IMG/VR virus record: IMGVR_UViG_3300020419_000923
Span: 2,703-66,702 of that record
Origin: a virus
Reading direction: 5' to 3' (one strand)
Length of the DNA stretch: 64,000 nucleotides
The notes under the pieces: model-generated
What the model was told of the DNA's origin: nothing
Seen by the model: the letters and a program-made list of their open reading frames with translations, nothing else
Databases searched by the model: none
Part shown: one piece after another, positions 1 through 38,812 of the stretch
Layout: every line of letters starts with the position of its first letter
How positions within the stretch are numbered: position 1 is the first letter of the stretch
Translations under genes and position numbers: made by a program

Positions 1-315
1 GCTGAACTGGAAACACAGCACGGATACACGCAGGACCCAGATCTGCTCACACCCGTGGTTGATGAGTACGTGGACTATGTAAAGACACTGGACGATGAAG
101 GCATACTAGCACACCTATACGTAAGGCACTTTGGAGAACTGCATGGCGGACAGATGATCAAGAAGCGAGCACCAGGATCAGGAACCATGTACGACTTTGA
201 TGATGCTCCTGGAATCATAGCCAAGGTAAGAGCCAAACTGCATGATGGCATGGCTGATGAAGCCAATGTGTGTTTCGAATACGCAATGCGTACATTTCAA
301 GAGCTGGATCGTTGA
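1..315 (+). CDS. Heme oxygenase, 5' part outside the window
   Basis: Frame open from base 1; AHLYVRHFGELHGGQMI matches the heme oxygenase distal-helix motif; ends EANVCFEY. Confidence 0.85.
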   Translation, partial: AELETQHGYTQDPDLLTPVVDEYVDYVKTLDDEGILAHLYVRHFGELHGGQMIKKRAPGSGTMYDFDDAPGIIAKVRAKLHDGMADEANVCFEYAMRTFQELDR

Positions 316-497
316 TAGTTTTTGGCTACATCCTAGTAGCAGTATGGATCACTACCACTGGTGACATACAAGGCGAAGCAGTGGATTACTTTTACTCGGA
401 AAGCGACTGCTGGGAAGCAGTGGCATATGAATGGGAAAACAGAACCATTGGCGAGAGCTTTACCTGTATAGCAGAAGGCGTAAACGAAACTCCCTAG
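312..497 (+). CDS. Small hypothetical protein with hydrophobic N-terminus
   Basis: ORF track 270..497; likely TTG start at 312 overlapping the heme oxygenase stop; IVFGYILVAVWIT. Confidence 0.5.
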   Translation: MIVFGYILVAVWITTTGDIQGEAVDYFYSESDCWEAVAYEWENRTIGESFTCIAEGVNETP

Positions 498-616
498 ACA
501 TAAACATGGTGTTTAAAACGCATTTAAACGCCTTTTTAGCACGTTCAAACAGTAAACAGCATAACTGTACTCAGAATCACAAGAACCATGAAATAAGAGC
601 CATTTAGGTGGGAAAA

Positions 617-653
617 CCATAGGCGACAGATGTCTGTCGCCATGGTGTGTTTT
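617..653. terminator. Hairpin between convergent genes, probably a bidirectional terminator
   Basis: GGCGACAG-ATGT-CTGTCGCC perfect 8-bp stem (622-641), short T tracts nearby on both strands. Confidence 0.6.
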
Positions 654-665
654 GAGCCTTGCTTT

Positions 666-2459
666 TTAGAATTTCTTCTTATAGCTTAAAAACCAAGTTC
701 TACCGTTTTGATTGTAGCCGTCTGGTTTTTGGTAATCTTCATCAGTCACGTTCATTAAACTGGCAGTGATTGATGTTGATTCATCGAAGTTTATTGAATG
801 GTGTAGGTCAAACAGATGTACTCCTGACATGTCCTTACGGGCATAGGTGCTGGCATCTAGATCAACATGCTCACCAGTGTATGCGTGGGTCACAGTGGTT
901 GTGAACTTGCCTGTCATCTCCTGCCTTACAAAACTTTGATTGAATGACCATTTTGGTCTACGTAAAAGCTGTGTACCGCTTGAGTCTTCAGCAATGCTCC
1001 AGTGTGCTCCGAGGTTGTGTTGCCACTCGTTGTTAAACGCATAGTTGTAGTTTGTTTCCAATCCCTTGCGTTCGCTAGTGCCTGACACGTTCGAATACGT
1101 GGAGTTACCATACGTGATGGCATTGTCGATGTCCGTGGTGTAGTATACCATGTCAAATCTCTTGTAGGTAAAGCCAACGTCCAAGGTCTTGCCTTTTTCT
1201 ACATCCAGCGTCGGGTTACCCGAGTAACCATAACTGTCCGCACCGTACTTTTCATACAGGGTAGGTGTTCGCACACTATTGCTCCAATTGGATCTCAGTT
1301 TGAGATCTTCGGTCAACATGTAGTATCCGCCCAGCTTGTATGTGTAGTAGTCATCATAGTCTTCCAAGTGATCCAAACGTACTCCTGAACTGATCATTCC
1401 GTTCTCTACCACTCTCCAGTTGCTGTTTACAAAGTAACCAGTGTTCCAATGATCAGCGTCAACTGAACTGGTGTATGATCCTCTGTTATTAAACTTGGCT
1501 TCCTGGCTTTCGTATTCTATACCTGGAACTATGTCTACGTTGTCCTTGACGATGGTTTGGCTCAACAGTATGTTTGTGCTGTTACTGTCATACTCATCTA
1601 TCTCTGAACCGTTAGTGTATGTTCTATCATAGGTTGTGTGTCCAATAGCAAAGTCCATGTGTCCGTGCTTGTTGTTCTTCTTACCTATAATTTGATACAC
1701 GTTGTTCTTGTTGTTAGCAACATAGTCCGGATCATCTGAGCTACCATCAAGGTCACTGTCGTTATCCTTGTGTAGTATGTTTGTTTTGATATGACCATCT
1801 TCTAATCTCGTGTAAGTTCCTATGCTGAAGTTACGCACAGAATATCCGTCGTCTTCAGTTCCTTCCTTAACACTGATACCATCACTGTCCGTACCACTTG
1901 CTGTTATAAACAAATGTGTACCGTTCTTGGTTTGATTGTGTACTCGCAGTTCCATACCTTTTGTGTTGTTTGATCCTGCCTTAAATGTTATTGAGTTTTC
2001 ATAAAACTCACCTGTGATAAAGTTAACAACTCCACCTATTGAATTTGGTCCTACCATAGCACCGCTTGGATTTTTTACGATCTCAATTGCTGATATGCTA
2101 GACATAAAGTCTTGTCCAAAGTCATGTAGTCCGTTTGTGGTAGAAGCGTCCTTTATAGGCAATCCGTTCATTGTTACCAATGTGTGATTGCTATCACCCC
2201 CACGCATGAACAAACTTACGTTCTGTCCTGTTGGTCCACTCTGGGTCATACTTAATCCAGTTACTCTATTCACTGCTTGTACGAAGTCCTGAGTGTTCTC
2301 TACTTCCAATGTGTACTTGTCTACGTAATCATATGTCGTAGTAGCCGTTGCTTGATCAGTATTACTACGAGTCAAGTAGATGGTAATCTCCATCATAGCT
2401 GAAGCCACACTTGAATAAGTTATTCCTAAAAATAGAAATATTAAAAATAGTTTACGCAT
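666..2459 (-). CDS. btuB: TonB-dependent outer-membrane receptor, BtuB (vitamin B12)-like
   Basis: Signal peptide; plug motif QSGPTGQNVSLFMRGGDSNHTLVTMNGLPI; GPNSIGGVVNFIT; RTPTLYE..GNPTL..EKG; LLRRPK; C-terminal F. TBDR call is firm, B12 specificity is inferred. Confidence 0.8.
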   Translation of the reverse strand: MRKLFLIFLFLGITYSSVASAMMEITIYLTRSNTDQATATTTYDYVDKYTLEVENTQDFVQAVNRVTGLSMTQSGPTGQNVSLFMRGGDSNHTLVTMNGLPIKDASTTNGLHDFGQDFMSSISAIEIVKNPSGAMVGPNSIGGVVNFITGEFYENSITFKAGSNNTKGMELRVHNQTKNGTHLFITASGTDSDGISVKEGTEDDGYSVRNFSIGTYTRLEDGHIKTNILHKDNDSDLDGSSDDPDYVANNKNNVYQIIGKKNNKHGHMDFAIGHTTYDRTYTNGSEIDEYDSNSTNILLSQTIVKDNVDIVPGIEYESQEAKFNNRGSYTSSVDADHWNTGYFVNSNWRVVENGMISSGVRLDHLEDYDDYYTYKLGGYYMLTEDLKLRSNWSNSVRTPTLYEKYGADSYGYSGNPTLDVEKGKTLDVGFTYKRFDMVYYTTDIDNAITYGNSTYSNVSGTSERKGLETNYNYAFNNEWQHNLGAHWSIAEDSSGTQLLRRPKWSFNQSFVRQEMTGKFTTTVTHAYTGEHVDLDASTYARKDMSGVHLFDLHHSINFDESTSITASLMNVTDEDYQKPDGYNQNGRTWFLSYKKKF

Positions 2460-2925
2460 AAATCCTCCTTTGTATCGTAACTATTGATTTTATAATCAAA
2501 GTGTAAAATAATGTGCCTGTTAGTGTGTTAGCAAAGAACGGTATAGCCGCTATGTAACATGCTATAAGTCCTTGCCAAGTTAATCCATAATATCCTGTAA
2601 GCCATACAGCAAAGTTGGTAATCACAAAAAACAACACACTAGCAGTTGATCCTGCTAGGTATGCGTTGTTGATGTACCTTGGTATGAAACTACATAATGC
2701 TATGGACATGTATACCACCCCCAACGTACTGTGCCAACCAAAATATAAATCGCTTAACATCATTGAACCTAATGCTATTGCTATTCCTGATAATGTTGCT
2801 CCTGTAATCATTGGAGCCATTACTGCTACTGCTAGTATTGGTGTAAAGTTGGGTGGGTGTGGTATTATTCTACTCAAGGCGATAGTAGACACGAATACTA
2901 TCAAGTAAAATAAATTTTTGCTCAT
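2452..2925 (-). CDS. DUF6580-type multi-pass membrane protein (ECF S-component-like, putative vitamin transporter)
   Basis: SRIIPHPPNFTPILAVA, FFVITNFAVW and CYIAAIPFFANTL motifs; about 5 TM segments; overlaps the receptor start. Confidence 0.7.
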   Translation of the reverse strand: MSKNLFYLIVFVSTIALSRIIPHPPNFTPILAVAVMAPMITGATLSGIAIALGSMMLSDLYFGWHSTLGVVYMSIALCSFIPRYINNAYLAGSTASVLFFVITNFAVWLTGYYGLTWQGLIACYIAAIPFFANTLTGTLFYTLIIKSIVTIQRRIYA

Positions 2926-2934
2926 CTTTTCTAT

Positions 2935-2963
2935 ACTATACTACGAGTTGGTTGTTTTGTCAA
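2935..2963 (-). promoter_or_regulatory. Sigma70-type promoter for the DUF6580-btuB pair
   Basis: TTGACA (2963-2958), 17 nt, TATAGT (2940-2935); only 9 nt to the ATG. Confidence 0.75.
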
Positions 2964-3751
2964 GTACTTTCGGTAAAGCACTCTTTTGGTAACGAGTTAC
3001 CAGGTCCCTTTGCTTTTTCTATCAGTTCAGGTAGTAGACCCGGGTGTGATAGTTTTTGTTTGTGTGTTAAGAAGCCTGTTTCAAACCCAGACTCTAAATC
3101 TAATTCTTTCTTATTGCTTATACTTTGTATAATTTTCTCAGCGAATATAGAATGGTTAGCAAGTGTCATATGATTTGCTCTAGTATCTATACTTTGATTA
3201 TACCATAACAACATCTCTTCTTCGGATGTAAATTCTCTATCACATACATGGAAAGTCATGTTACCTATTACCGGTATAAGGTCTGTCCACTCGATGTTTA
3301 AATTAAAACTTGGAATCAGCAGTAGGTGTAATTCGTTTTCAATCTGCTTTACACGTATGCTGTCAATCATTTGTTCTATACGCAATTGATCTATATCATC
3401 ACGTTGTAGGTACAGCCAATAGTCCATAACAGCTCTATACTTTTCTGGCTCAGCAGTTTCAAGGGATTTAGCATCGTGTGTTTCTGTGATACTAGCTAGA
3501 TTGCTTAGATGAGGTCTGTCTTTGAAAAACCATTGACGTGAATGTTCTGTTGTAAAGAATATTACAATGTCACCTGGCTGTTGTTTGTCATCACGGAACT
3601 GCATAGCACTCCATTCATTTGATGAACCAGCACAGGCTTGGTTGACTACTCTATCTATTCTCAAGTACCCTGCTAATTGCCTTTGCCAACACCAATCTAC
3701 TTTCCAGTCAACAGCAAAGCTATCACCATATATCCATAATGTTTTAGTCAA
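2960..3751 (-). CDS. Hypothetical protein, SGNH/GDSL-hydrolase-like
   Basis: IYGDSF, NQACAGSSN and late NHMT..NH motifs. Confidence 0.5.
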   Translation of the reverse strand: MTKTLWIYGDSFAVDWKVDWCWQRQLAGYLRIDRVVNQACAGSSNEWSAMQFRDDKQQPGDIVIFFTTEHSRQWFFKDRPHLSNLASITETHDAKSLETAEPEKYRAVMDYWLYLQRDDIDQLRIEQMIDSIRVKQIENELHLLLIPSFNLNIEWTDLIPVIGNMTFHVCDREFTSEEEMLLWYNQSIDTRANHMTLANHSIFAEKIIQSISNKKELDLESGFETGFLTHKQKLSHPGLLPELIEKAKGPGNSLPKECFTEST

Positions 3752-4523
3752 TGTTTATCTCCGCTGTTACGCTGTCCATTCCTACGTCTTCGCATTTCTT
3801 TACCCATTCGCCGTTTGGATCTATTATACCACTAGGACATTGTATCTTTTCATTTGTTTGTTCACCCTTCATATCAGTACATGCTGAACTTACAACCGTG
3901 TGTACGTTAAACTGTCGGCTTAACAATCTAAGATGTGATTCGTGGTAGTTGTATACAAGTTCGTCATGTTTATCTGTACAACAGTTTACAGAAACAAAAA
4001 CTATTCTCGCTCCATGCTGACTTATTTCTCTATAAAAATATGGATTACCCTTAGGACTTACCTGTGGAAAGGCCCATACGTCATTACAAATTAATGCCGA
4101 CGCTTTGAATTTATTAAGAGGGTCAAGGTAAAAGTATCCACACGTATTGCCGGGGGCATAAAAATAATACTCACCCATAGCATCTATATTATTAGTTAAC
4201 AGTTGTTTATTGTATACCCCTATACATATTCCTTCTCTATAAACACGTACCTGGTTATAGGGTAAGCCGTCTGGCTCTATATGCCCAGTGCCTAATAGTA
4301 AATTTCTTTTATTATCTAGTAAATGTTTTTCAAGTTTAGCCAGGGCCTCGTTGTAATCTTTATTCTTCTGTTCATGGGTCTGATTCAAACAGTACCCACT
4401 TAAACTACCTTCTGGAGTTAGTATCCAATCTGAATCCTTATTGGTATCTATTACGTCTATCAAACATTCTAAGTTTTCTTTTACTTCTGCGAATACAGGC
4501 TGTTGGCTAGTTGTTATTTTCAT
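3744..4523 (-). CDS. Carbon-nitrogen hydrolase (nitrilase family)
   Basis: E-K-C triad motifs LTPEG, YNKQLL, LICND. Confidence 0.85.
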   Translation of the reverse strand: MKITTSQQPVFAEVKENLECLIDVIDTNKDSDWILTPEGSLSGYCLNQTHEQKNKDYNEALAKLEKHLLDNKRNLLLGTGHIEPDGLPYNQVRVYREGICIGVYNKQLLTNNIDAMGEYYFYAPGNTCGYFYLDPLNKFKASALICNDVWAFPQVSPKGNPYFYREISQHGARIVFVSVNCCTDKHDELVYNYHESHLRLLSRQFNVHTVVSSACTDMKGEQTNEKIQCPSGIIDPNGEWVKKCEDVGMDSVTAEINID

Positions 4524-4903
4524 TTTGTTATTCCGTGTGGCGCTGGCTTTCCGTCTTTACCTAAATTTACAAATACAATTTTGTCAACACTTGTAATTGT
4601 TTTCTCTGTTCTCTTATTTCTTACATCACATTGTACTGTAATACTTGTCTTTCCAAGTTCAACAGTTTCCATTCCTATTTCGATTATGTCTCCTCTAATA
4701 GCACTATGATGGAAATCTATATTACTCATGCTTCTAGTAACCACTCTGTCATTATCTAATTGACAACTACAGTATATGTATGCTTCTTCGTCTATCCAAT
4801 CTAACACACGCCCACCGAACAATGTTCCGTTACTATTAAGATCTTTATGGGCAATCATTTTTCTTGTAAAGTATTTCATTTTTTTATTTTTTTTATTATC
4901 CAA
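4520..4903 (-). CDS. Acyl-CoA thioesterase (hotdog fold, YciA-like)
   Basis: DLNSNGTLFGGRVLDWIDEEA; IVFVNLGKDGKP. Confidence 0.85.
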   Translation of the reverse strand: MDNKKNKKMKYFTRKMIAHKDLNSNGTLFGGRVLDWIDEEAYIYCSCQLDNDRVVTRSMSNIDFHHSAIRGDIIEIGMETVELGKTSITVQCDVRNKRTEKTITSVDKIVFVNLGKDGKPAPHGITK

Positions 4904-4949
4904 GTTATAAAGGCCATTATCGCAGTTACTAATACACCAATGCCTATTT

Positions 4950-5663
4950 TCATTTAAACTTTTTCTTCTTGTGAAATATTCTTGCGTATGCGTTTGTTAG
5001 GAAAAATTTAAGACTTGTATCTCTTTTTACATTTTGCTCATCAACAATAGTTTCCATTTCCCATTCATCTCTCTTGAAAGGTAAAACCTGCATAATAGGA
5101 GTACCTGGAGGTATGATTACTTTTTCACCTGCCTTAGTATTCATATGCCCAGGCCAGTTACTCCAAGGTACATCAATTACATCAGTATCAACTATCCCTG
5201 GAAATAAAGTAAATCTTTTTTCAAATTGGTAATATGGTGGTTGTATCAAACATGAATATCCTGGAGGTGTTTCTATGCGCCACGGAACAGAGAAAGTAAT
5301 ATAATCTCTCCGTTCATCTTCGTTCACATGTATAGGACATTGTTCATGCATGTGACCTTCTTGTGGTTCTTGATTTTCCCACGCATCTGGAAATCTTCTT
5401 TGAAACGCAGTAATTTCTTCTTCTCCTGAATTACTTGGCCTTATTCCAGAGTGTATTTCCATTTCAACTGGATTGTAAATAATATACCCTGAAGTGATAT
5501 GATCATATATTGGCATACACTTCTTAACTGTAGGAGGAGATGTCATAGGCTCACCTAGCCATCCACCTAGCTTATTATACCAATCAGGCCTTTCCTTACT
5601 TGCTGGAACAGGCGGAAAGTGTTTTGCTACATGCCTGTCTCCACATATAAATTTAATTTTCAT
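4950..5663 (-). CDS. Hypothetical phage protein, paralog 1 (possibly dUTPase-like fold)
   Basis: PPVPA..PDWY, TVKKCMP, PWRIETPPGYSCL, GIVDTD, GTPIMQVLPFKR. Confidence 0.6.
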   Translation of the reverse strand: MKIKFICGDRHVAKHFPPVPASKERPDWYNKLGGWLGEPMTSPPTVKKCMPIYDHITSGYIIYNPVEMEIHSGIRPSNSGEEEITAFQRRFPDAWENQEPQEGHMHEQCPIHVNEDERRDYITFSVPWRIETPPGYSCLIQPPYYQFEKRFTLFPGIVDTDVIDVPWSNWPGHMNTKAGEKVIIPPGTPIMQVLPFKRDEWEMETIVDEQNVKRDTSLKFFLTNAYARIFHKKKKFK

Positions 5664-6340
5664 TTAAATCTCTTTTTGTTATGCATCATTCTAGCATAAC
5701 CATCTTGTTGTGTATTACATATTGTATCTTGTAACATCATACTAGTATCTATCTCAATAGACATATTCCAATCTTCTCTTCTGAAAGGAATAATCTGTGC
5801 TACAGGCTCGCCGGCTTTTATTGTAAAGCTATGTTCAAATATTTTAGCAGGCCAATTATGCCACGGAACATCAATTACATCAGTATCTATAACTGCTGTC
5901 ATTACTTCAAATCTACTATCAAAATGATAGTATGGTTTTTGGATAATACATGAATATCCCGGAGGTGTTTTTATCTGCCAAGGTACACTTATTACCATGT
6001 AATCTTTTGGTTGCCCAATAGGACATTGAGCAAATGGATGTCCTTCTTGTTCACTAAATTCTTTCCAACCATCAGGATAGTATCTGGAGAATCCTTCTGT
6101 ACCTTCATCAAAATTTGGTTGCGTATGTATGTCTTGATCGACTGCGTTGAACATAATATAACCGCAAGTCATTGCGTCATACACAGGCATACATTTCTTT
6201 ACAGTAGGAAAAGTTTTTTCATTATCTAGATACGTATCTAGTTTTGAATACCAGTCTGGTTTAAATGTGTTAGCAGGCACAGGCGGAAATTTTTGTGCTT
6301 CTTCTTTACCACAAGTAAACTTTATGTCAATCATCTCCAC
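5660..6340 (-). CDS. Hypothetical phage protein, paralog 2
   Basis: Same blocks as 4950..5663 (TVKKCMP, PWQIKTPPGYSC, IDTDVIDVPW). Confidence 0.6.
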   Translation of the reverse strand: MEMIDIKFTCGKEEAQKFPPVPANTFKPDWYSKLDTYLDNEKTFPTVKKCMPVYDAMTCGYIMFNAVDQDIHTQPNFDEGTEGFSRYYPDGWKEFSEQEGHPFAQCPIGQPKDYMVISVPWQIKTPPGYSCIIQKPYYHFDSRFEVMTAVIDTDVIDVPWHNWPAKIFEHSFTIKAGEPVAQIIPFRREDWNMSIEIDTSMMLQDTICNTQQDGYARMMHNKKRFK

Positions 6341-7959
6341 TCCGCAAATGTATAACTTTTAACATCACTACTATCTATGTAGTCCGAATTATTAGAATGT
6401 TTTACTCTTCCTGATCCATGTACTATGTCACCATCTCTATAAGCAAATGGTTTTTGGATTACCACATCAATGTATTCTCCGTAGTCTATACCTAGTGTAA
6501 GAAAAGTAACCCAGCGTCCTTTCTTACCACGATAGCATCTACCATTTGCTATTACACCTGAGAACTCAACACGATCCATCCATTGTTGTTTTACTCCAAG
6601 TCTTTTCGGAAAGCCATGCCACCACCAACCTGATTTAGTTGGAATGTTTAGTCTATGTGCTTCGCATTGATATACCCATGATCGATAAGATCCTTGACAA
6701 TGTTTTATGTTTGCTTTCCAAAACTCTTTTTTATTATGAGCCTTTTGATATGCTAATGCCCATATAAGACGTCCAAGATTAACAGCATGGGCTCTACATA
6801 GTCCAAACCCTGATAGTTCTTGTAGTGCGGCCATAGCTTCTTGCTTACGTGGATGTCCGCCCATCTTCTCTACAAACTCAAGTATCTTCTCATCATTCTT
6901 TTTAGCAAAGGCTCTACGATACATATCAGCTTCGTACATGTCTACACCTATGATGTTTGATATAATATCTATAGCGTCATCTTCAAACACGATACTGTCC
7001 TGTACTGCTTCTTGTGACCAGTCTTGGAACATAGCGGCCTTTTGTCTACCACTCATTGCTACTGGTCGTATCATAGCTGTAGCAAATACACAGTCGTATA
7101 CTGACTTAGGTTGTAATGCTCTAAACAGTCTACGCATCGCAGGAGACTCTCCTTGTGTAACACCTAGCACATCTCCTCTACAGAGTAATTGACTTGTAGC
7201 TTCATCTTGTTCAGGATAGTATTCTAGTTTTGTTATTTCGTCTATTTCTAATAGTTGTGATAATCCTCTGTTTGCTAATATGTCAACTTTCAAATGTTCT
7301 AGATCTTCTACTTCGTATTTGTCTAGCAGTATTTGATTGTCTTGTGATATTAAACTCTTAGGTAACTGTCTTGTAAACATAACTATGCCACCACAATGTT
7401 TTGATATAGCTCGTTTCTTTCCTATTAGTTTTCTTTCAATACGTTTTGCTTCTCTTGGATCAACTCCAACTGATTCATATGTAAAGTTGCGTGGAAGATT
7501 GCCTTTGGCTCCTAATCGTTTAGCCGCTTCCTTCCTAGCACTCTTTTCTCTAAACATAACATAGTTTGATAGTCGAGCAGTCTTGCCTGGCCATCTTTTA
7601 AATATTCTATTCATTACTTCGAGTTGTTGCCAATGCTGAAAGTCAATGTCAACATCAGGCAAGTCGTCACGTAATGGATTCATAAAACGTGCTACGGGTA
7701 TATTCCATTTGATAGGATCAACATCGGTTATACCTAGTAGATAGCAAACCAAACTGCTACCTGCTGAGCCACGAGTCATGTGTGTGAGATCTTGGGTGAT
7801 ATCTATTATATCGCAAATTTGTAGGAAGTAATCAGTAAATCTCTGATTAAGAATAAGTTCAAATTCTTCTGCTAGCCTTATCTTATAATTTTCTTTATCC
7901 GGTACTGGCCTTTTAAATCTATCCAAGAGTAGTTGTATGTTTTCTAAGTCTGTTTTCAT
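6331..7959 (-). CDS. dnaE: Compact DNA polymerase III alpha (family C) lacking the PHP domain
   Basis: RGSAGSSLVCYLLGITDVDP, RFMNPLR, LPDVDIDF, HCGG, KVDIL, RRAFAKK, GLCRAHA, OB-like C-terminus; ATG 7959 follows GGAGG (ORF track starts at 7971). Confidence 0.9.
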   Translation of the reverse strand: MKTDLENIQLLLDRFKRPVPDKENYKIRLAEEFELILNQRFTDYFLQICDIIDITQDLTHMTRGSAGSSLVCYLLGITDVDPIKWNIPVARFMNPLRDDLPDVDIDFQHWQQLEVMNRIFKRWPGKTARLSNYVMFREKSARKEAAKRLGAKGNLPRNFTYESVGVDPREAKRIERKLIGKKRAISKHCGGIVMFTRQLPKSLISQDNQILLDKYEVEDLEHLKVDILANRGLSQLLEIDEITKLEYYPEQDEATSQLLCRGDVLGVTQGESPAMRRLFRALQPKSVYDCVFATAMIRPVAMSGRQKAAMFQDWSQEAVQDSIVFEDDAIDIISNIIGVDMYEADMYRRAFAKKNDEKILEFVEKMGGHPRKQEAMAALQELSGFGLCRAHAVNLGRLIWALAYQKAHNKKEFWKANIKHCQGSYRSWVYQCEAHRLNIPTKSGWWWHGFPKRLGVKQQWMDRVEFSGVIANGRCYRGKKGRWVTFLTLGIDYGEYIDVVIQKPFAYRDGDIVHGSGRVKHSNNSDYIDSSDVKSYTFAEWR

Positions 7960-7996
7960 TATAGCCTCCAATTGCCTAAGTGCCTAAGCAGAGTAT

Positions 7997-8845
7997 TTAT
8001 GATCGGCTAAAGATGGCGTCGGTGGCTTTTTGGATTGTAACTCTTGGCTTAATTTCTACTTCTGCTGTAACGCTGTCCATGCCTTTGTTCTTACATTTCA
8101 CAATCCAATTACCATCTGGACCTATGATACCAGACGAACATTGAATGTAATCTGTTTCTTTATGTTGGACAGTTGTAGCACTATTTGAATGAACAATATA
8201 AAACCCAAACTCTTTGGCAAAGATTTGTAAATGATTTTCGTTCCATACTTTTGCTAATGGATCTAGTTCTTCTCCGTTACAATTAGATGCTACAAATAAT
8301 ACATCAACATTGTTCTTAGCTAACTCAATTGGTAGATAAGGATTGCCCTTAGGAGCACTTCTTGGCATACACCATATGTCATTACAAATAAGAGCAGATG
8401 CTTTTACTTGTTCATGTTCATCTAAATAAAAGTAACTAGGAACCTGTCCAGCTAGGTAACTATGTAATTCACCTCCGCCTTCCCATCCTTGCGTAAGTAA
8501 TCTTTTTTTATAAACAGATACATGTTCACCTGCTTTGTTATAAAATAAAATTCCGTTATATGGAAAAGTGTCTTTGCCTCTTATGCTTGAACCAATACCT
8601 ATGCCCACTCCTAGTTCTTTAGCTCGTTCTGCTATCTTTGTTATAGCTAGTTCTACATGCTGTACTTGAACAGTCACGGGTTGATATAACACAGGCGGCT
8701 GACAATATCCGCTTACGGCACATTCAGGAGTAAGTATCCAGTCTGTGTCTTTGTTTGCCTCTATCATATCCAGAGTACATTCTAAATTTTCTAACGGTTC
8801 TCTAAAGACAGGTTGTTGGAATGCTGTAAGTTTAATCTTCATCAT
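7997..8845 (-). CDS. Carbon-nitrogen hydrolase (nitrilase family), second copy
   Basis: LTPEC, YKKRLL, LICND; clear paralog of 3744..4523. Confidence 0.85.
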   Translation of the reverse strand: MMKIKLTAFQQPVFREPLENLECTLDMIEANKDTDWILTPECAVSGYCQPPVLYQPVTVQVQHVELAITKIAERAKELGVGIGIGSSIRGKDTFPYNGILFYNKAGEHVSVYKKRLLTQGWEGGGELHSYLAGQVPSYFYLDEHEQVKASALICNDIWCMPRSAPKGNPYLPIELAKNNVDVLFVASNCNGEELDPLAKVWNENHLQIFAKEFGFYIVHSNSATTVQHKETDYIQCSSGIIGPDGNWIVKCKNKGMDSVTAEVEIKPRVTIQKATDAIFSRS

Positions 8846-11930: not shown

Positions 11931-12074
11931 CTATTTGTATATAAACGGATCTCGTTTTTGAAGTTCTTTTATCTTCTTTTGTAGTTCACGTTGTTTTTTC
12001 TTTTCCTTAAAAAGTTCTATATAGAACCTAATGGGAAATGTTATAAAATCCCAAAATGCTTTTAACCAAACCAT
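11931..12074 (-). CDS. Small basic protein (47 aa), not in the ORF track
   Basis: MVWLKAFWDFITFPIRFYIELFKEKKKQRELQKKIKELQKRDPFIYK; fills the gap after primase. Confidence 0.6.
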   Translation of the reverse strand: MVWLKAFWDFITFPIRFYIELFKEKKKQRELQKKIKELQKRDPFIYK

Positions 12075-13060
12075 TTCTTTGCTCCTAGCTTTATTTTTAG
12101 TTCATTAAATTCAGCACTACCTACAATAGTATGTAGTGTGTATATTTTTCCATATTTCTGAACAGCTTCATTTACATCTTTTATTTCTTTATCCCAGTTC
12201 GGCATACTAACTCCCCAACCTAGTTCTAAAGCCTGTTCAACTATTTTTTCTCCTGATTCATCTCTGTCAGGAACAACAATCACTTTAGTATTTAAACTAT
12301 TAATCAACATAGCCTGTTGATCTTTGATTTCACTTCCTAACAAGGCTACACCTTCAACAGCAATAGCATCAAAAGGTCCTTCTACCACAACTGTGTATAC
12401 ACGACCATAACGTTGACTGTCTAAGTTAAAAACGTATCCTGGTTGTTGATCGCTTATGTACTTTGGATTTCCTTCTTTTATTTTTCTAGCTGTATATCCT
12501 ACAACACGTTTGTCAGAATAGAAAGGAACAATCAGTCTATCTGAATATCCATTTAAAGGTGACCAATGAAAGTTATAATCATCAAAGTATAACTGCCGTG
12601 ACTGTAAGTACTCAAATACTTTTAGTAAGTTTTTATCTACTCCTGTAGATTCCATAGCACGATAATCTGCCCACTCTTGTAAAGGCTTTGCGCCTTCAGG
12701 TAATTCTTTATTCATAAACTTGGGTAGTATAGTCTGGTCATTAGTCTTAAGTTCTTCAGTTTCTAAAACTTGTAAACTTATTTTTGTAATAGTATCATCA
12801 GGAATGTTAAGCCATTGCATCAATCTTTTCATTTTGTAGCTTATTCTTCTACCAGGCTTCCAACTTGCCGTGAAGCCACAATTAAAACAATGATAGCTTA
12901 CACCTCCACCTTCGCCTGTTTTTACTCCTGCTCGTTGTCTTGTATCAGCACTAGTGCCATTATGTACACAACACGGAGCATTAAAACTTAACCAACCAGA
13001 AGGCGTTTGCTTACGCTTATGGGGCAGGTGAAATGTTAGGGTTTCATACACTATACTCAT
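12062..13060 (-). CDS. gp61: DNA primase (T4 gp61-like)
   Basis: N-terminal Zn finger (APCC..YHCFNC); TOPRIM VVEGPFDA and PDRD..G. Confidence 0.88.
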   Translation of the reverse strand: MSIVYETLTFHLPHKRKQTPSGWLSFNAPCCVHNGTSADTRQRAGVKTGEGGGVSYHCFNCGFTASWKPGRRISYKMKRLMQWLNIPDDTITKISLQVLETEELKTNDQTILPKFMNKELPEGAKPLQEWADYRAMESTGVDKNLLKVFEYLQSRQLYFDDYNFHWSPLNGYSDRLIVPFYSDKRVVGYTARKIKEGNPKYISDQQPGYVFNLDSQRYGRVYTVVVEGPFDAIAVEGVALLGSEIKDQQAMLINSLNTKVIVVPDRDESGEKIVEQALELGWGVSMPNWDKEIKDVNEAVQKYGKIYTLHTIVGSAEFNELKIKLGAKKWFG

Positions 13061-13066: not shown

Positions 13067-13095
13067 ATTATAGTATAGAACTTTCAGATTGTCAA
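13067..13095 (-). promoter_or_regulatory. Consensus sigma70 promoter, probably giving a leaderless primase mRNA
   Basis: TTGACA (13095-13090), 17 nt, TATAAT (13072-13067), 6 nt, ATG 13060. Confidence 0.85.
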
Positions 13096-16634: not shown

Positions 16635-17383
16635 AATTTTGATTCCTTAGCAACTTCCTTTACAACTTCTACATCAGCTTGTTTCTTTCTAAACTTCATT
16701 GCCCAATGCTTTGGATCTATAACTGTGTACACAAACTCTAATTGTTCATCATTAAACTGTGATAGCATCTTCTTACCTGATCCGCAGTTTAACATAAGCC
16801 AGGGACTAATCTTTCCATCCTTGATATCTCTTGTTACTCTATTTAATGTTGCGTGTCTAAAGTAATCGTTCCAAGGTGCTTCTTTCTCTTCACCCCAAGA
16901 CATCATAGTATCAATAGTTCTTTCTACTGCTGTCTCCATGCTTTCTTTTAAAATATATTCGTTAACATACTTTTCATACAGTTCATCTCTACACCAATGA
17001 TCAAGTTTAACTCCGCCTGTTACAACCCAATCAATATAGTTTTCCATATACAAAGGTTTCACGTTGTTTAACCAACTTCCGAACTTAACAAACGCATTGT
17101 AGTAAGGACTGTCACAAAATTGCTTATATGTTTTTTCTGTCTTAGTACCAGCACTTAATTTGTAAAATCTAGTAAATCCATAAAATCCAAGTTGTACATG
17201 TTTTTCATTCTTTTGTAAGTGTCTACGTTTTTTCTCACACATATGAACTGCTAAAGTCTTTTCTCTAGTAAAAGCCGATCCACAATATTCACAGACGTAT
17301 GGCTTAGATGTCGACACTTTTCTTATCCATTCCGTATGCTTCTCCAAGGGCAAACAATTCTTTTTTTGTAGATATTCTAGCAA
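16631..17383 (-). CDS. Hypothetical protein with N-terminal C2H2/C2HC zinc finger
   Basis: KPYVCEYCGSAFTREKTLAVHMCE; true start probably GTG 17317. Confidence 0.65.
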   Translation of the reverse strand: MLEYLQKKNCLPLEKHTEWIRKVSTSKPYVCEYCGSAFTREKTLAVHMCEKKRRHLQKNEKHVQLGFYGFTRFYKLSAGTKTEKTYKQFCDSPYYNAFVKFGSWLNNVKPLYMENYIDWVVTGGVKLDHWCRDELYEKYVNEYILKESMETAVERTIDTMMSWGEEKEAPWNDYFRHATLNRVTRDIKDGKISPWLMLNCGSGKKMLSQFNDEQLEFVYTVIDPKHWAMKFRKKQADVEVVKEVAKESKL

Positions 17384-17759
17384 GTAATTCTACCTCATCT
17401 TTTTTCATGTTAGGAAATAACTTTTCTAAAAATTTTACATTCTTACTGTTTGATCCTGTTTTCTTCTTATAACCAATCCATTCATGATACTGTATATTCT
17501 TTGTGTTACCAGCCATACAAATAAGTTGCCATAACAGTTTCTTATGTTTTTGTAAATTAAAAAAGTTTTTATTATAGTATTCATTCGTTTTAAATACTGC
17601 TAATTCTTGATTATCTCTATTACCTTTTTGTGAACTTACATATCTATTAAGGAGATAAAAACTTACTTGTTTCTTTTCGTCATTAGATAGTTCGTCCCAA
17701 ACTTCTTTGGCTCCCATATCAACTGCCGCAAGTATATCTTTTAAAGGTAACTTATTCAT
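17304..17759 (-). CDS. Probable clamp-loader small subunit (T4 gp62-like)
   Basis: Size; FYLLNRYVS, NEYYN and Lys-rich W.GYKKK then LEKLFP pattern; replication context. Confidence 0.5.
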   Translation of the reverse strand: MNKLPLKDILAAVDMGAKEVWDELSNDEKKQVSFYLLNRYVSSQKGNRDNQELAVFKTNEYYNKNFFNLQKHKKLLWQLICMAGNTKNIQYHEWIGYKKKTGSNSKNVKFLEKLFPNMKKDEVELLARISTKKELFALGEAYGMDKKSVDI

Positions 17760-17764
17760 AATTT

Positions 17765-17793
17765 ATTATAACCTAATTTGCTTAAAAAGTCAA
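17765..17793 (-). promoter_or_regulatory. Sigma70 promoter, essentially leaderless
   Basis: TTGACT (17793-17788), 17 nt, TATAAT (17770-17765), 5 nt, ATG 17759. Confidence 0.8.
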
Positions 17794-20726: not shown

Positions 20727-22184
20727 CTAGTTCCATTCTACTTTTTCTATTGTAAATGGGTATTGGGCTTCCTTATAAAACTTTTTTCGTTGAGTAAGGT
20801 GCCGCTTCGCGAACTTACATGTTGAAGTAAGATCCCATATCTGTACGAAGTCTTTGTCTTTCGCCTTTCTTACGCCTCTGCCTATTGATTGTATTACCCT
20901 TACAAAAGACTTGCCAGGCTCAATAAGGACGAGATTAAAAATGCGAGGAATATTAATTCCCACCGCCGCAACTCCATAGGTTGCGATAACCACATGGTTA
21001 GTACCTTCATTGATTTCATCGTATGCTTCTTTCCTGTCTTTAAGTTTAACATCACCTTTTACAAACTGTGATCCTGGTATTGCTTGTTGTAATTTTTCTC
21101 CTGCTGATATTCTATCTACTAGTATTAATGTGTTGCCTGATGCTTTAATTTTGTTTAATAATTTGCCTAAGTAATCTACTCTTGGATCATTAGTCACAAG
21201 ATATTTTAATTCTTCTTGGTAGTTTGAATGTACAGGAGTATCAATTAGTTGAACTATGTTTACATGACACTGACTTAATACACCTTTATCCTGTAATTCT
21301 TTAGCACTTATTTGTCCTATCACAGGACCAATTCCAGCATGTATAGCCTCAAACTCAAACTTTTCTTTTGGTATTGTACCTGTAAGTCCCCAACGTATTG
21401 GAGCATTACGTAAGTTAAGTGTTAATAACTTTTTCAAAACTTCTGCTTTTGCTTGGTGTACTTCGTCAACGATTATTGTTGAAACACCTTCTAAGAATTC
21501 AGCAAGACTCAATACAGCATCTCCGTACTTGCTTTTTTTGTCTAATATATTTAAACTTTGCCAAGTACAAATTGTATGAGTCTTACCTAGTTCTTTCCTA
21601 TCACCAAAATACACACCTACATCAAGCCCACAGTTTACATAATCTTCCTCTGTTTGTGTGACCAAACTCTTATTGGGAACAATTACCAGGCTACGCCCGT
21701 ATGTTTCTGTAAGCCTGCTCAATGTCGCAGTTATGATAGTTTTTCCTGCTCCGGTAGCAACTTCCTGTAATGATTGTGGATTTTCTAAGAAGTTATTGAT
21801 TACCTCGACTTGATAATCACGCAACCGAATTGTTTCGCCTTCAGCAGGATGTCCTTTGGGCCACGTTTTATCTCCCCAAAAGTCTTCTGTAATTGTTTGA
21901 AAATTTAAATCGACCTTTTGTCTTTGGTCGTCAATCTCGTCTATTTGTATTCCGCACTTATGAAGTACAGTATTTATTGTGTCCAAATGATTAACATATC
22001 CTGAACCGCCAAGACCAAAGAATCCTACTTTGCCGTCCCACCGTCCTAGTTTATACTGTGGCATATAACGAGCATATGGCACTTCAAACTTAAGACTGTT
22101 GCTGATCTTTCTACGTACATCAACCGGTAGTCCTTCTATCTTAATATTTACTTCGTCTTGTATAACTAACCTACAACTAGGCAT
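20727..22184 (-). CDS. uvsW: SF2 DNA helicase, UvsW-like
   Basis: LRDYQ, ATGAGKT, DEVH, GLTGT, QSIGRGVR. Confidence 0.92.
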   Translation of the reverse strand: MPSCRLVIQDEVNIKIEGLPVDVRRKISNSLKFEVPYARYMPQYKLGRWDGKVGFFGLGGSGYVNHLDTINTVLHKCGIQIDEIDDQRQKVDLNFQTITEDFWGDKTWPKGHPAEGETIRLRDYQVEVINNFLENPQSLQEVATGAGKTIITATLSRLTETYGRSLVIVPNKSLVTQTEEDYVNCGLDVGVYFGDRKELGKTHTICTWQSLNILDKKSKYGDAVLSLAEFLEGVSTIIVDEVHQAKAEVLKKLLTLNLRNAPIRWGLTGTIPKEKFEFEAIHAGIGPVIGQISAKELQDKGVLSQCHVNIVQLIDTPVHSNYQEELKYLVTNDPRVDYLGKLLNKIKASGNTLILVDRISAGEKLQQAIPGSQFVKGDVKLKDRKEAYDEINEGTNHVVIATYGVAAVGINIPRIFNLVLIEPGKSFVRVIQSIGRGVRKAKDKDFVQIWDLTSTCKFAKRHLTQRKKFYKEAQYPFTIEKVEWN

Positions 22185-23421
22185 TTATTACTTTCCTTAA
22201 TCTCTTGTTCCAGTAAACTGACGAGCTGTCATCTTCATAAACTATTTGAAGATCAAACTGTTGAATATAGTTTGTTACATTGTTAAAGTTAAGACTCTTA
22301 CCTCCAAAACTTATAATAGCTCTAGGAGAAAATCCTTTCTGTAACAAAGGCTTAGGCAGTTTACTATTATTAATATACACTATTTGGCTGTATTTGTCAA
22401 CCGGATTATTTAAACCTTTTTCGCTTACCATTAAATTGAAAGGATCTCTTTCGTCTGTATTTGGTTTTCTAAAACATACACTTATCTTGTCATTACTAAT
22501 AATATTCCTAAAATGGTTATAACAAACTGTAAGTTCATCTAGTGCGTTCTTTTCATTTAAAACTATCAATAACGGAAATCTTTTTAGTTCTACAAGCGAT
22601 TGTATCAATTGATCAATCGTGTGTGTCTTTGATTGTAACACTATTGTTGGGTCTTTACGTTGTATTATCTTATTTGTCAATACAGATAACTTGGCATAGC
22701 TTTGTGATATTTTTGCCATATCAAAATATTTTAATCCAAAAAGTTCTCTACGATCATAATATAAAGGAAGGGTATCTTCATTACATTCGCCTATTTCAGA
22801 AAGTAAAATATCTTTTACTGTATCCGGAATATTTTTAATCTTATAATCATAGATGCCTGGAACGTATTTTTCTTTTGAAGATTCAAATAATATACATCTT
22901 TCATATATATCTTTTATGTTTTTATCTACTTCAAACTTATATTCAAACTTGTGTGCTATCTCAACCAACTTAACCAAGGTTTGGGGAGAATAAGAAAATT
23001 TGTGAATGTTATCTCCGTAACTATGACTTATAGGATCAACTCGTCTTACTTCTTCTATCCTGTCTATAATCTTTCTATTAAACGGAAATCTAATCACTAA
23101 TTTTTCTTCTTCGTCAAACTTTAAAAAATGTGATCTGTCTATTTCTCTTAAAGGATACATTAACTTGTCTTTGTAATGATCAATATTAATACCTTTGTTT
23201 AAAAATTGATCTCTATAATTTTCAAGTTTTGTTATCACAAGGTTATACTGTCTATCAGTCAATGGTATTCCTTTTGACAGTTGCTTGGCAATACTTTTTA
23301 GTATCTTAGCATCACTATCTAAAAGTTTATATCCGTGATCTATTATCTTTAGGTTAATCGGTCTAGGAATAGTTATTCCTGTAAGAAGCGATATTAAACC
23401 TTCACAATTTTCCTGTATCAT
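22177..23421 (-). CDS. Hypothetical protein
   Basis: 414-aa ORF with its own promoter; LTDRQY and IRFPFN blocks. Confidence 0.65.
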   Translation of the reverse strand: MIQENCEGLISLLTGITIPRPINLKIIDHGYKLLDSDAKILKSIAKQLSKGIPLTDRQYNLVITKLENYRDQFLNKGINIDHYKDKLMYPLREIDRSHFLKFDEEEKLVIRFPFNRKIIDRIEEVRRVDPISHSYGDNIHKFSYSPQTLVKLVEIAHKFEYKFEVDKNIKDIYERCILFESSKEKYVPGIYDYKIKNIPDTVKDILLSEIGECNEDTLPLYYDRRELFGLKYFDMAKISQSYAKLSVLTNKIIQRKDPTIVLQSKTHTIDQLIQSLVELKRFPLLIVLNEKNALDELTVCYNHFRNIISNDKISVCFRKPNTDERDPFNLMVSEKGLNNPVDKYSQIVYINNSKLPKPLLQKGFSPRAIISFGGKSLNFNNVTNYIQQFDLQIVYEDDSSSVYWNKRLRKVINA

Positions 23422-23427: not shown

Positions 23428-23456
23428 ATTATAGTTGATTATAGACTAGATGTCAA
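23428..23456 (-). promoter_or_regulatory. Consensus sigma70 promoter, leaderless
   Basis: TTGACA (23456-23451), 17 nt, TATAAT (23433-23428), 6 nt, ATG 23421. Confidence 0.85.
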
Positions 23457-37779: not shown

Positions 37780-38754
37780 TTAGTTTTGTTGCCTTGCTCT
37801 TATCATGGAAAGAATGTCTTCAGCCTTTCCACTTGGTTGAGCTGGTTCTTCAGCTTTAGGAGCTTCTACCTTTGGGGCTTCTGCTACCGGAGCCGTTTCC
37901 TGCTTTGGGGAAGTATCCGCCTTAGGAGCAGTATTGCCTCGAGTCATAGGATCACCTGTTCTCGCAGACATACCTGCTGGACGAAAGTATTGTCCAAAAC
38001 GATCCATATCGTATGGTTCACCATCGACACTCGCTTCAAACATTTCTTTCATTACCTTAACTTCAACTTCACCTGGCTTCTTAGGAAGGAAGTCTGGTAA
38101 GTTAAACAAACCATTTGTTTCAATGGCTTTCATTTCAGCATCCGATAATGGACGCTCACGTCTTGCCCAACTTGAAGTTGAGTAATCTGCGTATCCGCCT
38201 TTTGTAGTTTTATTCAGACGAAAGTCTACACCAGCAGTATAATCTGTTGGTAACTCTTCCATGTCAGGATCCATAAGAGCCTGTTTGATGATTTGGAAAA
38301 TCTGTGGACCAATAATAAAACGTCTAATTGGATTTTCAGGAGTTGTATCGTCGCTTAATGCGTTCTCAGTTACAAATCCTTGGAAGATATATGATCTCTT
38401 CTTCCAATATTTTCGACCCATGTCTTCAAGACTTGCGTCTTTAAACCAGCCACGAACTTCGTTAAGAATTTCACAGCTATCACCATACATTTCCATACAA
38501 GGAACTTGTACTTGTACAGGACGAGAATCAGTCTCACCCTTTACACCTGCGAAAGGCAGTTTGATCATCAAACGTTCTTTCCAGAAAAATGTGTTGGATT
38601 CGTCACCATCAGGAAGGAAACGAAGCGTTGAGCTTTCGCTTTCTTTCATATTCCAGAATGGAAAAATTGCGTTGTCCCCGCCGGAGCTTTGTGAACCACT
38701 TGTGCGTGATTCTTGTTCTTTCAGTTTAGCTCTGATTTCTGCTAATGTTGCCAT
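37780..38754 (-). CDS. gp32: Single-stranded DNA-binding protein (gp32-like)
   Basis: LRFLPDGD, GRKYWKKRSY, GYADYSTS; strong GGAGG RBS. Confidence 0.88.
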   Translation of the reverse strand: MATLAEIRAKLKEQESRTSGSQSSGGDNAIFPFWNMKESESSTLRFLPDGDESNTFFWKERLMIKLPFAGVKGETDSRPVQVQVPCMEMYGDSCEILNEVRGWFKDASLEDMGRKYWKKRSYIFQGFVTENALSDDTTPENPIRRFIIGPQIFQIIKQALMDPDMEELPTDYTAGVDFRLNKTTKGGYADYSTSSWARRERPLSDAEMKAIETNGLFNLPDFLPKKPGEVEVKVMKEMFEASVDGEPYDMDRFGQYFRPAGMSARTGDPMTRGNTAPKADTSPKQETAPVAEAPKVEAPKAEEPAQPSGKAEDILSMIRARQQN

Positions 38755-38812
38755 AATAAGCCTCCTTTAAATTAGCCTTTGTATTGTGCCTAAAAGTGTA
38801 GCACATAAACAT

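Follow-up and report, generated by a model that had tools for sequence, protein, structure and literature searches.

The 64,000-nt stretch of viral DNA analysed here (the window; positions 2,703 to 66,702 of IMG/VR record IMGVR_UViG_3300020419_000923) carries two overlapping genes that probably form a phage auxiliary cassette for vitamin B12 (corrinoid) import, predicted to depend on the host TonB-ExbBD system and to operate without B12 feedback. An outer- plus inner-membrane cobalamin importer, as an earlier sequence-only reading had it, remains the best description of the pair, given a receptor on the BtuB side of the receptor tree, a partner with an S-component fold and relatives linked to B12. 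We infer the cobalamin substrate, the membrane location, the TonB dependence and the timing of this import.

Organisation of the cassette

The DUF6580 and receptor ORFs share 8 nt at 2452..2459 (ATGCGTAA; Table 1). The TTGACA-17-TATAGT promoter previously noticed 9 nt from the ATG was recovered at 2963..2935 on the minus strand with the same spacing; matching at 11/12 positions, it is the best of the 17 promoter-like sites in 1..6000, the other 16 of which match at 9/12, and such sites overall are not above chance there (17 found, 19.3 in shuffles). The stop codon of the preceding gene (2960..2962) falls within the -35 hexamer, and the intergenic gap is 34 nt. The same layout, TTGAC(A/T)-17-TA(T/A)A(G/A)T followed after 7-9 nt by ATG, is present in 4/4 syntenic relatives (L007, L008, L009 and L042), and the window has three further strong promoters that end 5-6 nt ahead of an ATG. 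Since the -10 hexamer ends 9 nt before the ATG, a leaderless or almost leaderless mRNA is expected; we propose that host RNA polymerase would initiate at this sigma-70-type promoter to give a two-gene message, and that receptor translation may be coupled to that of DUF6580 through the overlap and the AGGAGG inside the upstream gene. The hairpin past the receptor gene, with eight pairs of which six are G-C, is a consensus match only, because terminator-like sites are not above chance (5 found, 3.6 in shuffles).

Table 1. Features of the candidate B12 import cassette (window coordinates)
Feature	Position	Strand	Remarks
BtuB-like TonB-dependent outer-membrane receptor	666..2459	-	597 aa, intact ORF; domain, sequence and fold matches
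DUF6580 membrane protein, candidate solitary inner-membrane cobalamin carrier	2452..2925	-	157 aa; PF20221; S-component-like fold
AGGAGG Shine-Dalgarno of receptor gene	2464..2469	-	within DUF6580 3' end; 4 nt before receptor ATG
Sigma-70-like promoter TTGACA-17-TATAGT	2935..2963	-	11/12 positions; -10 ends 9 nt before DUF6580 ATG
Intrinsic-terminator-like hairpin GGCGACAGACATCTGTCGCC + T-rich tail	622..641	-	25 nt past receptor stop; would close two-gene unit

Phage context

The source contig is a fragment of a marine jumbo myophage with genes for tail sheath (E 5e-222), TerL (E 9e-126), tail tube and DNA polymerase, its TerL being 54% identical to that of Pseudomonas jumbo phage PA5oct; the record represents an estimated 19% of the genome and the cassette lies 3.4 kb from the record end. 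The genes flanking the cassette on either side are common to four other viral contigs, and in a sister lineage the cassette adjoins TerL and structural genes. The junctions recur, with 0-4 differences, in assemblies from two other studies, X7 contigs covering 1-2701 and 2723-6831 (none across 2701-2723) and X12 covering 1981-3602. That the stretch is phage DNA, as first supposed, is thus borne out by the structural genes on the contig, the flanks conserved in five contigs and the junctions in independent assemblies.

Searching the genomes of 185,579 species with the two conserved peptides of the clade returned no full-length cellular relative above 31% identity, and megablast of window positions 1-6000 against GenBank phages gave no match. 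With the receptor as tblastn query, GenBank phages yielded only five records, at 24-40% identity and none spanning 80% of the query (two Acinetobacter phage MD-2021a records, a 3-kb Salmonella phage record and two named Salmonella enterica). Scanning viral contigs with single sequences proved too stringent and found five distant loci for the receptor and none for DUF6580; the alignment-based scan succeeded. Four small RNA-derived contigs within the receptor gene come from one metatranscriptome that possibly contains DNA, and are not proof of transcription; the RNA run X15 gave contigs for 1061-1535 and a diverged piece at 3350-3649 only, and the RNA run X19 none.

A receptor on the BtuB side

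The sequence-only reading had described a full-length TonB-dependent receptor with a BtuB-like plug and an LLRRP motif, and this description held. The ORF has the plug and 22-strand beta-barrel of the TonB-dependent receptor superfamily, each above its Pfam cut-off (Plug 56.2 bits, TonB_dep_Rec_b-barrel 92.1 bits), together with a signal peptide, a TonB-box-like EITIYLTR and a C-terminal Phe. With 378 matches at E<=0.001, its AF2 model (pTM 0.76) can be laid over solved receptor structures, the top Foldseek match being E. coli BtuB 1nqg (E 2.9e-31, TM 0.82/0.85). E. coli BtuB is also the top match of a PDB sequence search (residues 56-593, E 6.5e-21), and the same alignment sets the QLLRRP of the receptor opposite the PLLRRA of BtuB. 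By MAFFT, EITIYLTR stands opposite DTLVVTANR, which we take to be the TonB box of E. coli BtuB; this part of the model has low confidence (residues 1-34, pLDDT<50), and the segment is kept across lineages A and B. This segment, the plug and the BtuB-like loop motifs are maintained throughout the receptor clade, and the Asp-rich loop 233-246, invariant within the clade, may be tied to BtuB-like calcium binding along with the TEDDGY/TDNDGF motif.

Compared with E. coli BtuB (PDB 1NQE/1NQG/1NQH), the receptor is similar in length (597 aa including the signal peptide versus the 594-aa crystallised chain 1nqe_A), in its plug and barrel, and in the TEDDGY/TDNDGF and LLRRP/LLRRA motifs common to both. 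It differs in that it is only about 20% identical and phage-encoded, is partnered by DUF6580 and not by BtuCDF, and has no riboswitch in the lineage of the window.

Placed by HMM and phylogeny, as had been suggested, the receptor falls in with BtuB rather than with receptors for heme or siderophores. Among NCBIfam models it scores highest with TonB-B12 TIGR01779 (186.6 bits); TonB-hemin reaches 86. Both BtuB models score below their equivalog cut-offs (TIGR01779, 186.6 versus 599.7; NF007926, 132.4 versus 836); since the TIGR01779 score falls short, the receptor is not BtuB by the NCBI rule, and its substrate could be another corrinoid or a different compound. In a careful tree, for which 36/76 rows were dropped, the receptor lies on the BtuB side of a branch supported at 100/98, opposite heme receptors, FepA, CirA, FecA and FhuA. 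The BtuB side holds 31 rows (21 viral or metagenomic and 10 cellular BtuB, namely E. coli BtuB, NCBIfam equivalogs and two riboswitch-linked genes) versus nine other receptors, and a quick tree of 59 rows, after removal of 17 near-duplicate or poor ones, supports the same split at 97. The viral and metagenomic receptors form a separate clade (100/100), whose sister (96/85) is the cellular receptor of an AdoCbl-II-riboswitch-TBDR-DUF6580 operon. Atlas look-ups gave family-level names only. The receptor would use the Sec route for export, fold in the outer membrane and draw its energy from host TonB-ExbBD through the TonB-box-like segment.

The DUF6580 partner resembles ECF S components

The gene overlapping the receptor by 8 nt had been read as a DUF6580/S-component-like membrane gene, and the assignment was confirmed, with PF20221 matching residues 4-151 of the 157-aa ORF at 116.8 bits (gathering cut-off 27; E 1.5e-33). 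NCBIfam and PHROGs have no model that matches DUF6580. When the AF2 model (pLDDT 89) was compared with known structures by VIA-align, the top 20 matches were all ECF S components (Z 10.3-12.5, 141-155 residues aligned) and the first unrelated row followed at Z 8.7, although helical bundles may attain similar Z by chance; Foldseek E-values for the model are weak, the best being 0.83. Judged from the model, the protein takes the ECF S-component fold, a six-helix membrane bundle. The DUF6580 family profile has a single match in the PDB, 6fnp_A (E 4.2e-6, profile positions 8-122), while a search with the single sequence gave one chance match only. Residues R19, H23, D59, N104, W108 and Y113 are conserved in the family.

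BtuM of Thiobacillus denitrificans is described as a solitary S-component B12 transporter, of a family with a conserved loop-3 cysteine that ligates cobalt, Cys80 being essential (Rempel et al. 2018, PMC6072759). BtuM 8c7p is among the joint-best fold matches of DUF6580 (Z 12.5, rmsd 3.1, 150/157 residues aligned); both are small membrane proteins with an S-component fold that can occur with btuB, and the same job is proposed for DUF6580. In contrast, no conserved residue corresponds to Cys80, as only 3/25 aligned homologues share the Cys78 found in the window protein, and neither the DUF6580 protein nor its family profile matches BtuM in the PDB at E<=10. Membership of the BtuM family by sequence was rejected on these grounds, the absence of a homology match and the variable cysteine in the 25-row alignment.

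CbrT, the B12 S component of ECF-CbrT (PDB 6FNP), is reported to accept cobalamin and cobinamide and to give no growth by itself, the ECF module being required (Santos et al. 2018, PMC5997447). It has the common fold and is the sole PDB sequence match of the DUF6580 profile, 6FNP chain A being taken as CbrT by inference from its 182-aa length and 'Membrane protein' label. The difference is that CbrT needs its ECF module, whereas the phage records, and two of the three cellular genomes checked, gave no EcfT match: G238 and G126, of unstated completeness, have no PF02361 match and no PF01032 match above cut-off, and G156 has a CbiQ/EcfT match. We propose that the DUF6580 protein would enter the inner membrane and, without an ECF module, serve as a solitary corrinoid carrier like BtuM.

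A cobalamin riboswitch in sister phages but not in the window

The cassette had been said to leave no room for a riboswitch. In agreement with this and with the 34-nt gap, a permissive Rfam scan of window 1..8000 gave two chance-level matches only (U7 and ceN56), and an RF01689 search of the whole 66.7-kb record found nothing, so the upstream aptamer that defines an AdoCbl-II (RF01689) regulon is lacking here. In the lineage of the window the promoter abuts the ATG in 5/5 cases; without a riboswitch leader, expression would be blind to B12 status. In the sister lineage, RF01689 is above cut-off on 14/15 contigs (71.7-93 bits; cut-off 36.5), these being all 14 hits among 47 related records, and the fifteenth contig begins inside the gene. 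There the riboswitch is placed between the promoter and the same gene pair, with the aptamer <=260 nt upstream of DUF6580 in the nine loci of this lineage (group B) inspected (one such leader lies at L010 9236-9425), and an AdoCbl-II leader after the same promoter would bring the pair under B12 feedback control. DUF6580 lies immediately upstream of the receptor in 34/41 related viral loci.

Cellular DUF6580 genes are found in B12 salvage neighbourhoods. Within 1.5 kb of DUF6580, a PduO-type adenosyltransferase occurs in 11/30 cellular loci, TonB in 3/30 and a BtuF-like protein in 2/30; a receptor stands beside it in only 2/30. The 1.5-kb flanks contain a riboswitch in 0/30 loci, and wider flanks revealed two cobalamin-riboswitch operons, RF00174-TBDR-PduO-DUF6580 and RF01689-TBDR-DUF6580, the latter carried by one cellular genome of 1.1 Mb; the genomes of both operons have no EcfT and no FecCD above cut-off. 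DUF6580 was not found in five genomes chosen from the receptor scan, nor in 14 control genomes. The sister phages, with RF01689-DUF6580-TBDR, are comparable to marine bacterial AdoCbl-II (RF01689) btuB operons, with RF01689-TBDR-DUF6580 in the cell; however, the phage gene order is reversed, and the lineage of the window has no aptamer.

Energisers and B12-dependent enzymes

The 66.7-kb record has no match for TonB_C, MotA/ExbB, EcfT or FecCD, which upholds the view that host energisers would be needed in the absence of a phage TonB/ExbBD; the host is assumed to have TonB-ExbBD. B12-binding (PF02310), TonB (PF03544) and adenosyltransferase (PF01923) domains were likewise not found in five related viral records (G000, G001, G004, G011 and G016), negatives that do not show absence because these records are fragments. 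The suggestion that import feeds a B12-dependent class II reductase was not sustained. In a related record of 242 kb the only reductase found belongs to class I (an nrdA bearing an ATP cone, and nrdB), and the five records gave no B12-binding domain. A class II candidate was discarded, since the TIGR02504 matches in G004 and G016 were both below cut-off and fell only on a class I nrdA. Since no phage B12-dependent enzyme was found in this lineage, the likeliest beneficiaries of import are those of the host.

Alternative explanations

BtuB is a common phage receptor, and the sequence-only reading had also raised a receptor decoy or exclusion device. In such a decoy or superinfection-exclusion role, a BtuB look-alike in the outer membrane would soak up, block or mislead rival phages or colicin-like toxins that use BtuB, import being irrelevant. 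Surface remodelling of this kind would fit constitutive expression without B12 feedback, and a 2026 preprint proposes receptor-level interference as one function of the outer-membrane proteins of huge phages and describes, for Lak phages, a TonB-dependent receptor of 22 strands (bioRxiv 10.64898/2026.10.24.761521); its main text contains no B12, cobalamin or BtuB and describes neither a riboswitch nor a DUF6580 pairing, while its supplement may list clade members. We nevertheless regard the decoy as unlikely. It would have no use for a partner in the inner membrane, yet the pairing with such a carrier is conserved, DUF6580 standing with the receptor in 34/41 viral loci; nor would it call for repression by intracellular B12, yet the sister lineage has B12 feedback control, with the AdoCbl-II riboswitch on 14/15 of its contigs. 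Conservation across the clade of the plug, of the TonB-box-like segment and of loop motifs also present in BtuB likewise speaks against it.

Import of heme by the receptor, with a convergent heme oxygenase (window 1..315) freeing iron, or a module for another tetrapyrrole, appears highly unlikely. The heme-oxygenase-like ORF (PF01126, E 9.8e-6) does end 350 nt from the receptor 3' end and recurs in L007, and TonB-hemin models do score on the receptor (86 bits); however, the B12 model is ahead by 100 bits, both NCBIfam-qualified heme receptors lie opposite the receptor across the 100/98 branch, the oxygenase is present in only 1/4 syntenic relatives and, being convergent, forms no operon with the receptor, and the riboswitch control of the relatives is by cobalamin. 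Finally, host DNA assembled by mistake into a phage contig, or a cellular fragment wrongly classed as viral, might explain why the cassette lies so near the record end (3.4 kb), why GC is 0.437 in the first 2 kb of the window versus ~0.35 elsewhere, and why, in the nearest Atlas receptor clusters, those few members that have a record are labelled as bacterial. This is scarcely credible in view of phage-conserved genes on both flanks in five contigs, junctions bridged by two other studies, a sister-lineage cassette adjoining TerL and structural genes, the lack of a close relative in cellular genomes, and a cassette promoter of the phage's own type.

Wider significance

Few marine microbes make B12, which is limiting for many others, and phage genes for nutrient acquisition are a known kind, e.g. 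that for the phosphate-binding pstS. A full-text literature search found no report of a phage B12 importer, a phage cobalamin riboswitch or a function for DUF6580. We hold it evenly balanced whether several unrelated marine phage lineages (jumbo myophages estimated at 350-440 kb, and phages of ~140 kb) install their own B12 import route, made up of a virus-specific sister clade of BtuB and DUF6580. In that case DUF6580 would represent a hitherto unnoticed family of corrinoid transporters that work as solitary S components; a phage-borne AdoCbl-II riboswitch would be retained in one lineage, and another would have discarded it and joined its promoter directly to the start codon, so that B12 uptake no longer follows the homeostasis of the cell. 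Should the import reading hold, infected cells would be B12 sinks of relevance to vitamin cycling, DUF6580 would acquire a testable function, in cells too, and the riboswitch-bearing and riboswitch-less sister cassettes would offer a natural experiment on the keeping or discarding of metabolite feedback by viruses.

In other viral lineages, the receptor adjoins a candidate cobalamin-dependent radical SAM enzyme; with such a neighbour, the imported cofactor may be put to use in chemistry of the phage itself.

Cassette anatomy and transcription signals

The cassette comprises a DUF6580 gene and a TonB-dependent receptor gene that, as read from the sequence, overlap by 8 nt, with AGGAGG lying within the last codons of the DUF6580 gene, 4 nt ahead of the receptor ATG; the receptor displays a signal-peptide-like N terminus (MRKLFLIFLFLGITYSSVASA) and a C-terminal Phe. 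The cassette promoter is the best among 17 promoter-like sites in window 1..6000, a number not beyond chance expectation. Its -10 hexamer ends 9 nt before the ATG, and the preceding gene's stop codon falls within its -35 hexamer. A permissive Rfam scan found no cobalamin riboswitch in window 1..8000, and RF01689 (AdoCbl-II) had no match anywhere in the 66,702-base record. The two-gene arrangement behind an abutting promoter and without a riboswitch, proposed in the sequence-only reading, is therefore confirmed by ORFs, Pfam, promoter match and Rfam scans. We counted 7 strong promoter sites in the window versus 3.45 +/- 1.9 in shuffles. Three strong promoters other than that of the cassette end 5-6 nt before an ATG, so that the arrangement is characteristic of the phage rather than special to the cassette; leaderless or near-leaderless transcripts seem habitual in this phage.

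Features of the cassette and similarly placed promoters in the window
Feature	Position	Strand	Details
Receptor gene	666..2459	(-)	597 aa; Pfam Plug + TonB_dep_Rec_b-barrel
DUF6580 gene	2452..2925	(-)	157 aa; Pfam DUF6580, E 1.5e-33
Promoter TTGACA-17-TATAGT	2963..2935	(-)	11/12 consensus positions
Hairpin + T-rich tail	641..622	(-)	3' of receptor gene
Sigma-70-like promoter	13067..13095	(-)	11-12/12; 5-6 nt before ATG of ORF 12062..13060
Sigma-70-like promoter	17765..17793	(-)	11-12/12; 5-6 nt before ATG of ORF 17304..17759
Sigma-70-like promoter	23428..23456	(-)	11-12/12; 5-6 nt before ATG of ORF 22177..23421

Phage origin of the DNA

The window spans bases 2703-66702 of a 66,702-base IMG/VR record, to which CheckV gives a completeness of 19%; by arithmetic this implies a genome of ~350 kb. 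Among the genes of the window are tail sheath, large terminase, tail tube, sheath-stabiliser-like, DNA polymerase, DnaB-like helicase and primase-like genes, and TerL shares 54% identity with its counterpart in the Pseudomonas jumbo phage PA5oct. Homologues of both cassette flanks occur in the same order in four viral contigs (L007, L008, L009, L042). At least half of the sampled words of a 2.4-kb stretch were present in 14 DNA runs, of which 6 may be the source sample while the remaining 8 represent 6 studies. Contigs from sequencing run X7 cover 1-2701 with 4 differences and 2723-6831 with 2, and a contig from run X12 covers 1981-3602 with none; both cassette junctions are thus reproduced by other assemblies. 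Phage genes, synteny and these contigs all agree on the viral context.

GC content is 0.437 in window 1..2000 versus 0.32-0.40 over the remaining window. The region of the receptor gene and heme oxygenase, GC-richer than the phage backbone, is consistent with acquired genes. A cellular scan with two conserved peptides of the receptor clade, using one genome per species, yielded 66 loci from 185,579 prokaryote species and no full-length match above 31% identity, although such a pattern-dependent scan can miss distant cellular relatives. The window also holds two carbon-nitrogen hydrolase (nitrilase-superfamily, PF00795) paralogues (3744..4523 and 7997..8845, (-)), a 4HBT thioesterase gene (4520..4903) and two tryptophan-halogenase-like genes (56773..58275 and 58391..59872).

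The receptor and its DUF6580 partner

The top NCBIfam model for the receptor is TonB-B12 with 186.6 bits, far under the equivalog cut-off of 599.7, against 86 bits for TonB-hemin. In the PDB, E. coli BtuB matches its sequence best, over almost the full length, and BtuB structures also come first for its AF2 model (pLDDT 73.5; E 2.9e-31, TM 0.82/0.85), with Cir, ChuA and others ranking below. Phylogenetic input included E. coli BtuB, FhuA, FepA, CirA and FecA, two riboswitch-linked cellular receptors, viral and metagenomic relatives, and genomic receptors whose scores passed or approached the cut-offs of the NCBIfam B12 and hemin models. In the careful tree (LG+G4, 40 of 76 rows retained), the 21 viral/metagenomic rows form a single clade (support 100/100), which together with 10 cellular BtuB rows splits from 9 other receptors (100/98); a quick tree of 59 rows gives the same split (97). 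The receptor segment EITIYLTR aligns with DTLVVTANR of E. coli BtuB, which we take to be the TonB box, and the two proteins share the motifs TEDDGY/TDNDGF and LLRRP/LLRRA, presumably part of the calcium-binding loops in E. coli BtuB. By model scores, structure match and phylogeny the receptor is placed on the BtuB side rather than with heme/siderophore receptors.

For the DUF6580 AF2 model (pLDDT 89), all top 20 structural matches are ECF S components (Z 10.3-12.5), with cyanocobalamin-bound BtuM joint first (Z 12.5, rmsd 3.1, 150/157 residues aligned) and the best unrelated row at Z 8.7; Foldseek alone gave weak E-values. A 25-homologue profile matched one PDB sequence (E 4.2e-6), a 182-aa chain labelled 'Membrane protein' in 6FNP, which PMC5997447 presents as the ECF-CbrT vitamin B12 transporter; from its length, the matched chain would be CbrT. 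Neither the protein nor the family profile matched BtuM in sequence, and the essential cysteine of BtuM, as described in PMC6072759, is not conserved among DUF6580 homologues.

DUF6580 was carried by 43 of 300 sampled genomes of one class. Within the 1.5-kb flanks of 30 cellular loci we observed a PduO-type cobalamin adenosyltransferase in 11, TonB in 3, a BtuF-like binding protein in 2 and a riboswitch in none, while a receptor lies alongside DUF6580 in only two. Wider flanks revealed a cobalamin riboswitch-receptor-PduO-DUF6580 operon in the first of these two loci and an AdoCbl-II riboswitch-receptor-DUF6580 operon in the second; neither genome yielded a match to EcfT, or to FecCD over cut-off. 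In the careful tree, the receptor from the AdoCbl-II operon branches as sister of the viral clade (96/85). We model DUF6580 as S-component-like and associated with B12 genes; the family was not mentioned in the literature that our incomplete search covered.

Viral relatives and riboswitch control

An alignment-based scan found 41 IMG/VR loci with receptor relatives, 34 of them with DUF6580 directly preceding the receptor; DUF6580 was missing from 5 more distant loci in the first scan. Group A (4 loci, 60-70% identity to the window receptor) is syntenic with the window, group B (43-50%) comprises 15 loci, one on a 242,646-base record rated 55% complete, and group C and others (28-36%) have CheckV figures implying ~140 kb. 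RF01689 exceeded cut-off (71.7-93 bits) in 14 of 47 records searched, all in group B, whose 15th contig starts inside the DUF6580 gene, and in none of the five group A contigs including the window, where the promoter-to-ATG distance is 7-9 nt throughout (5/5).

All nine group B loci inspected have a TTGACA-17-TATAAT-like promoter upstream of the aptamer. A strongly conserved ~60-nt block lies 3' of the AdoCbl-II aptamer (viral locus L010 9236-9425 and 6 other group B leaders); its UAACAGU has two potential pairing partners, CCGCUGU and the ACUGUUA found at the start codon, and this alternative pairing would make a translational switch. Compensatory changes affect 10 of 42 predicted pairs. The group B riboswitch-DUF6580-receptor cassette sits between homologues of window genes 38872..41160 (762-aa structural) and 37780..38754 (324 aa), which in the window are adjacent across a 117-nt gap (38755..38871), so that the location of the cassette differs between the two lineages.

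Proposed importer function and rival readings

Comparative evidence supports well the outer- plus inner-membrane importer proposed from the sequence alone, a predicted B12 function that would make the cassette a phage nutrient-uptake gene set. Synteny and the independently assembled contigs speak against misassembly of the cassette onto the phage. A heme uptake module is contradicted by the receptor tree and the NCBIfam scores, and heme oxygenase is retained in only one of four syntenic relatives. The receptor as a decoy is disfavoured, since this would leave unexplained both the conserved inner-membrane partner and the feedback regulation by B12 that group B shows.

A 2026 preprint reports beta-barrel outer-membrane proteins of huge phages including a TonB-dependent receptor (bioRxiv 10.64898/2026.10.24.761521); B12, cobalamin and BtuB go unmentioned in the main text. 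The OM43 phage paper describes riboswitches as rare in phages and a host cobalamin riboswitch ahead of btuB. Our literature search, of incomplete coverage, found no description of a phage B12 importer or phage-borne cobalamin riboswitch.

Possible users of the putatively imported B12

Supply of B12 to a class II ribonucleotide reductase, the purpose suggested from the sequence alone, is not supported, as the related 242-kb record encodes a class I reductase (nrdA with ATP cone, and nrdB). Searches of five related, fragmentary viral records turned up no B12-binding domain, TonB or PduO. One block of the 242-kb record (L174, G004:C1:189000-197000) groups Hsp20, Hsp70, ClpS, NifU, an Fe-S assembly protein, one MotA/ExbB-like protein (34.8 bits) and an SbmA/BacA-like transporter (452.8 bits).

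A radical SAM gene with no homologue in the window adjoins the receptor in 7 of 46 viral loci searched, in group C and more distant loci (L032 11761-12981, L031, L036, L028, L044 10453-11997, L045, L004). The N terminus matches the B12-binding PF02310 in two of three homologues tested, at 26.5 and 26.2 bits, below the cut-off of 32.1. This neighbour is a possible candidate for a phage-encoded cobalamin consumer in these other lineages.
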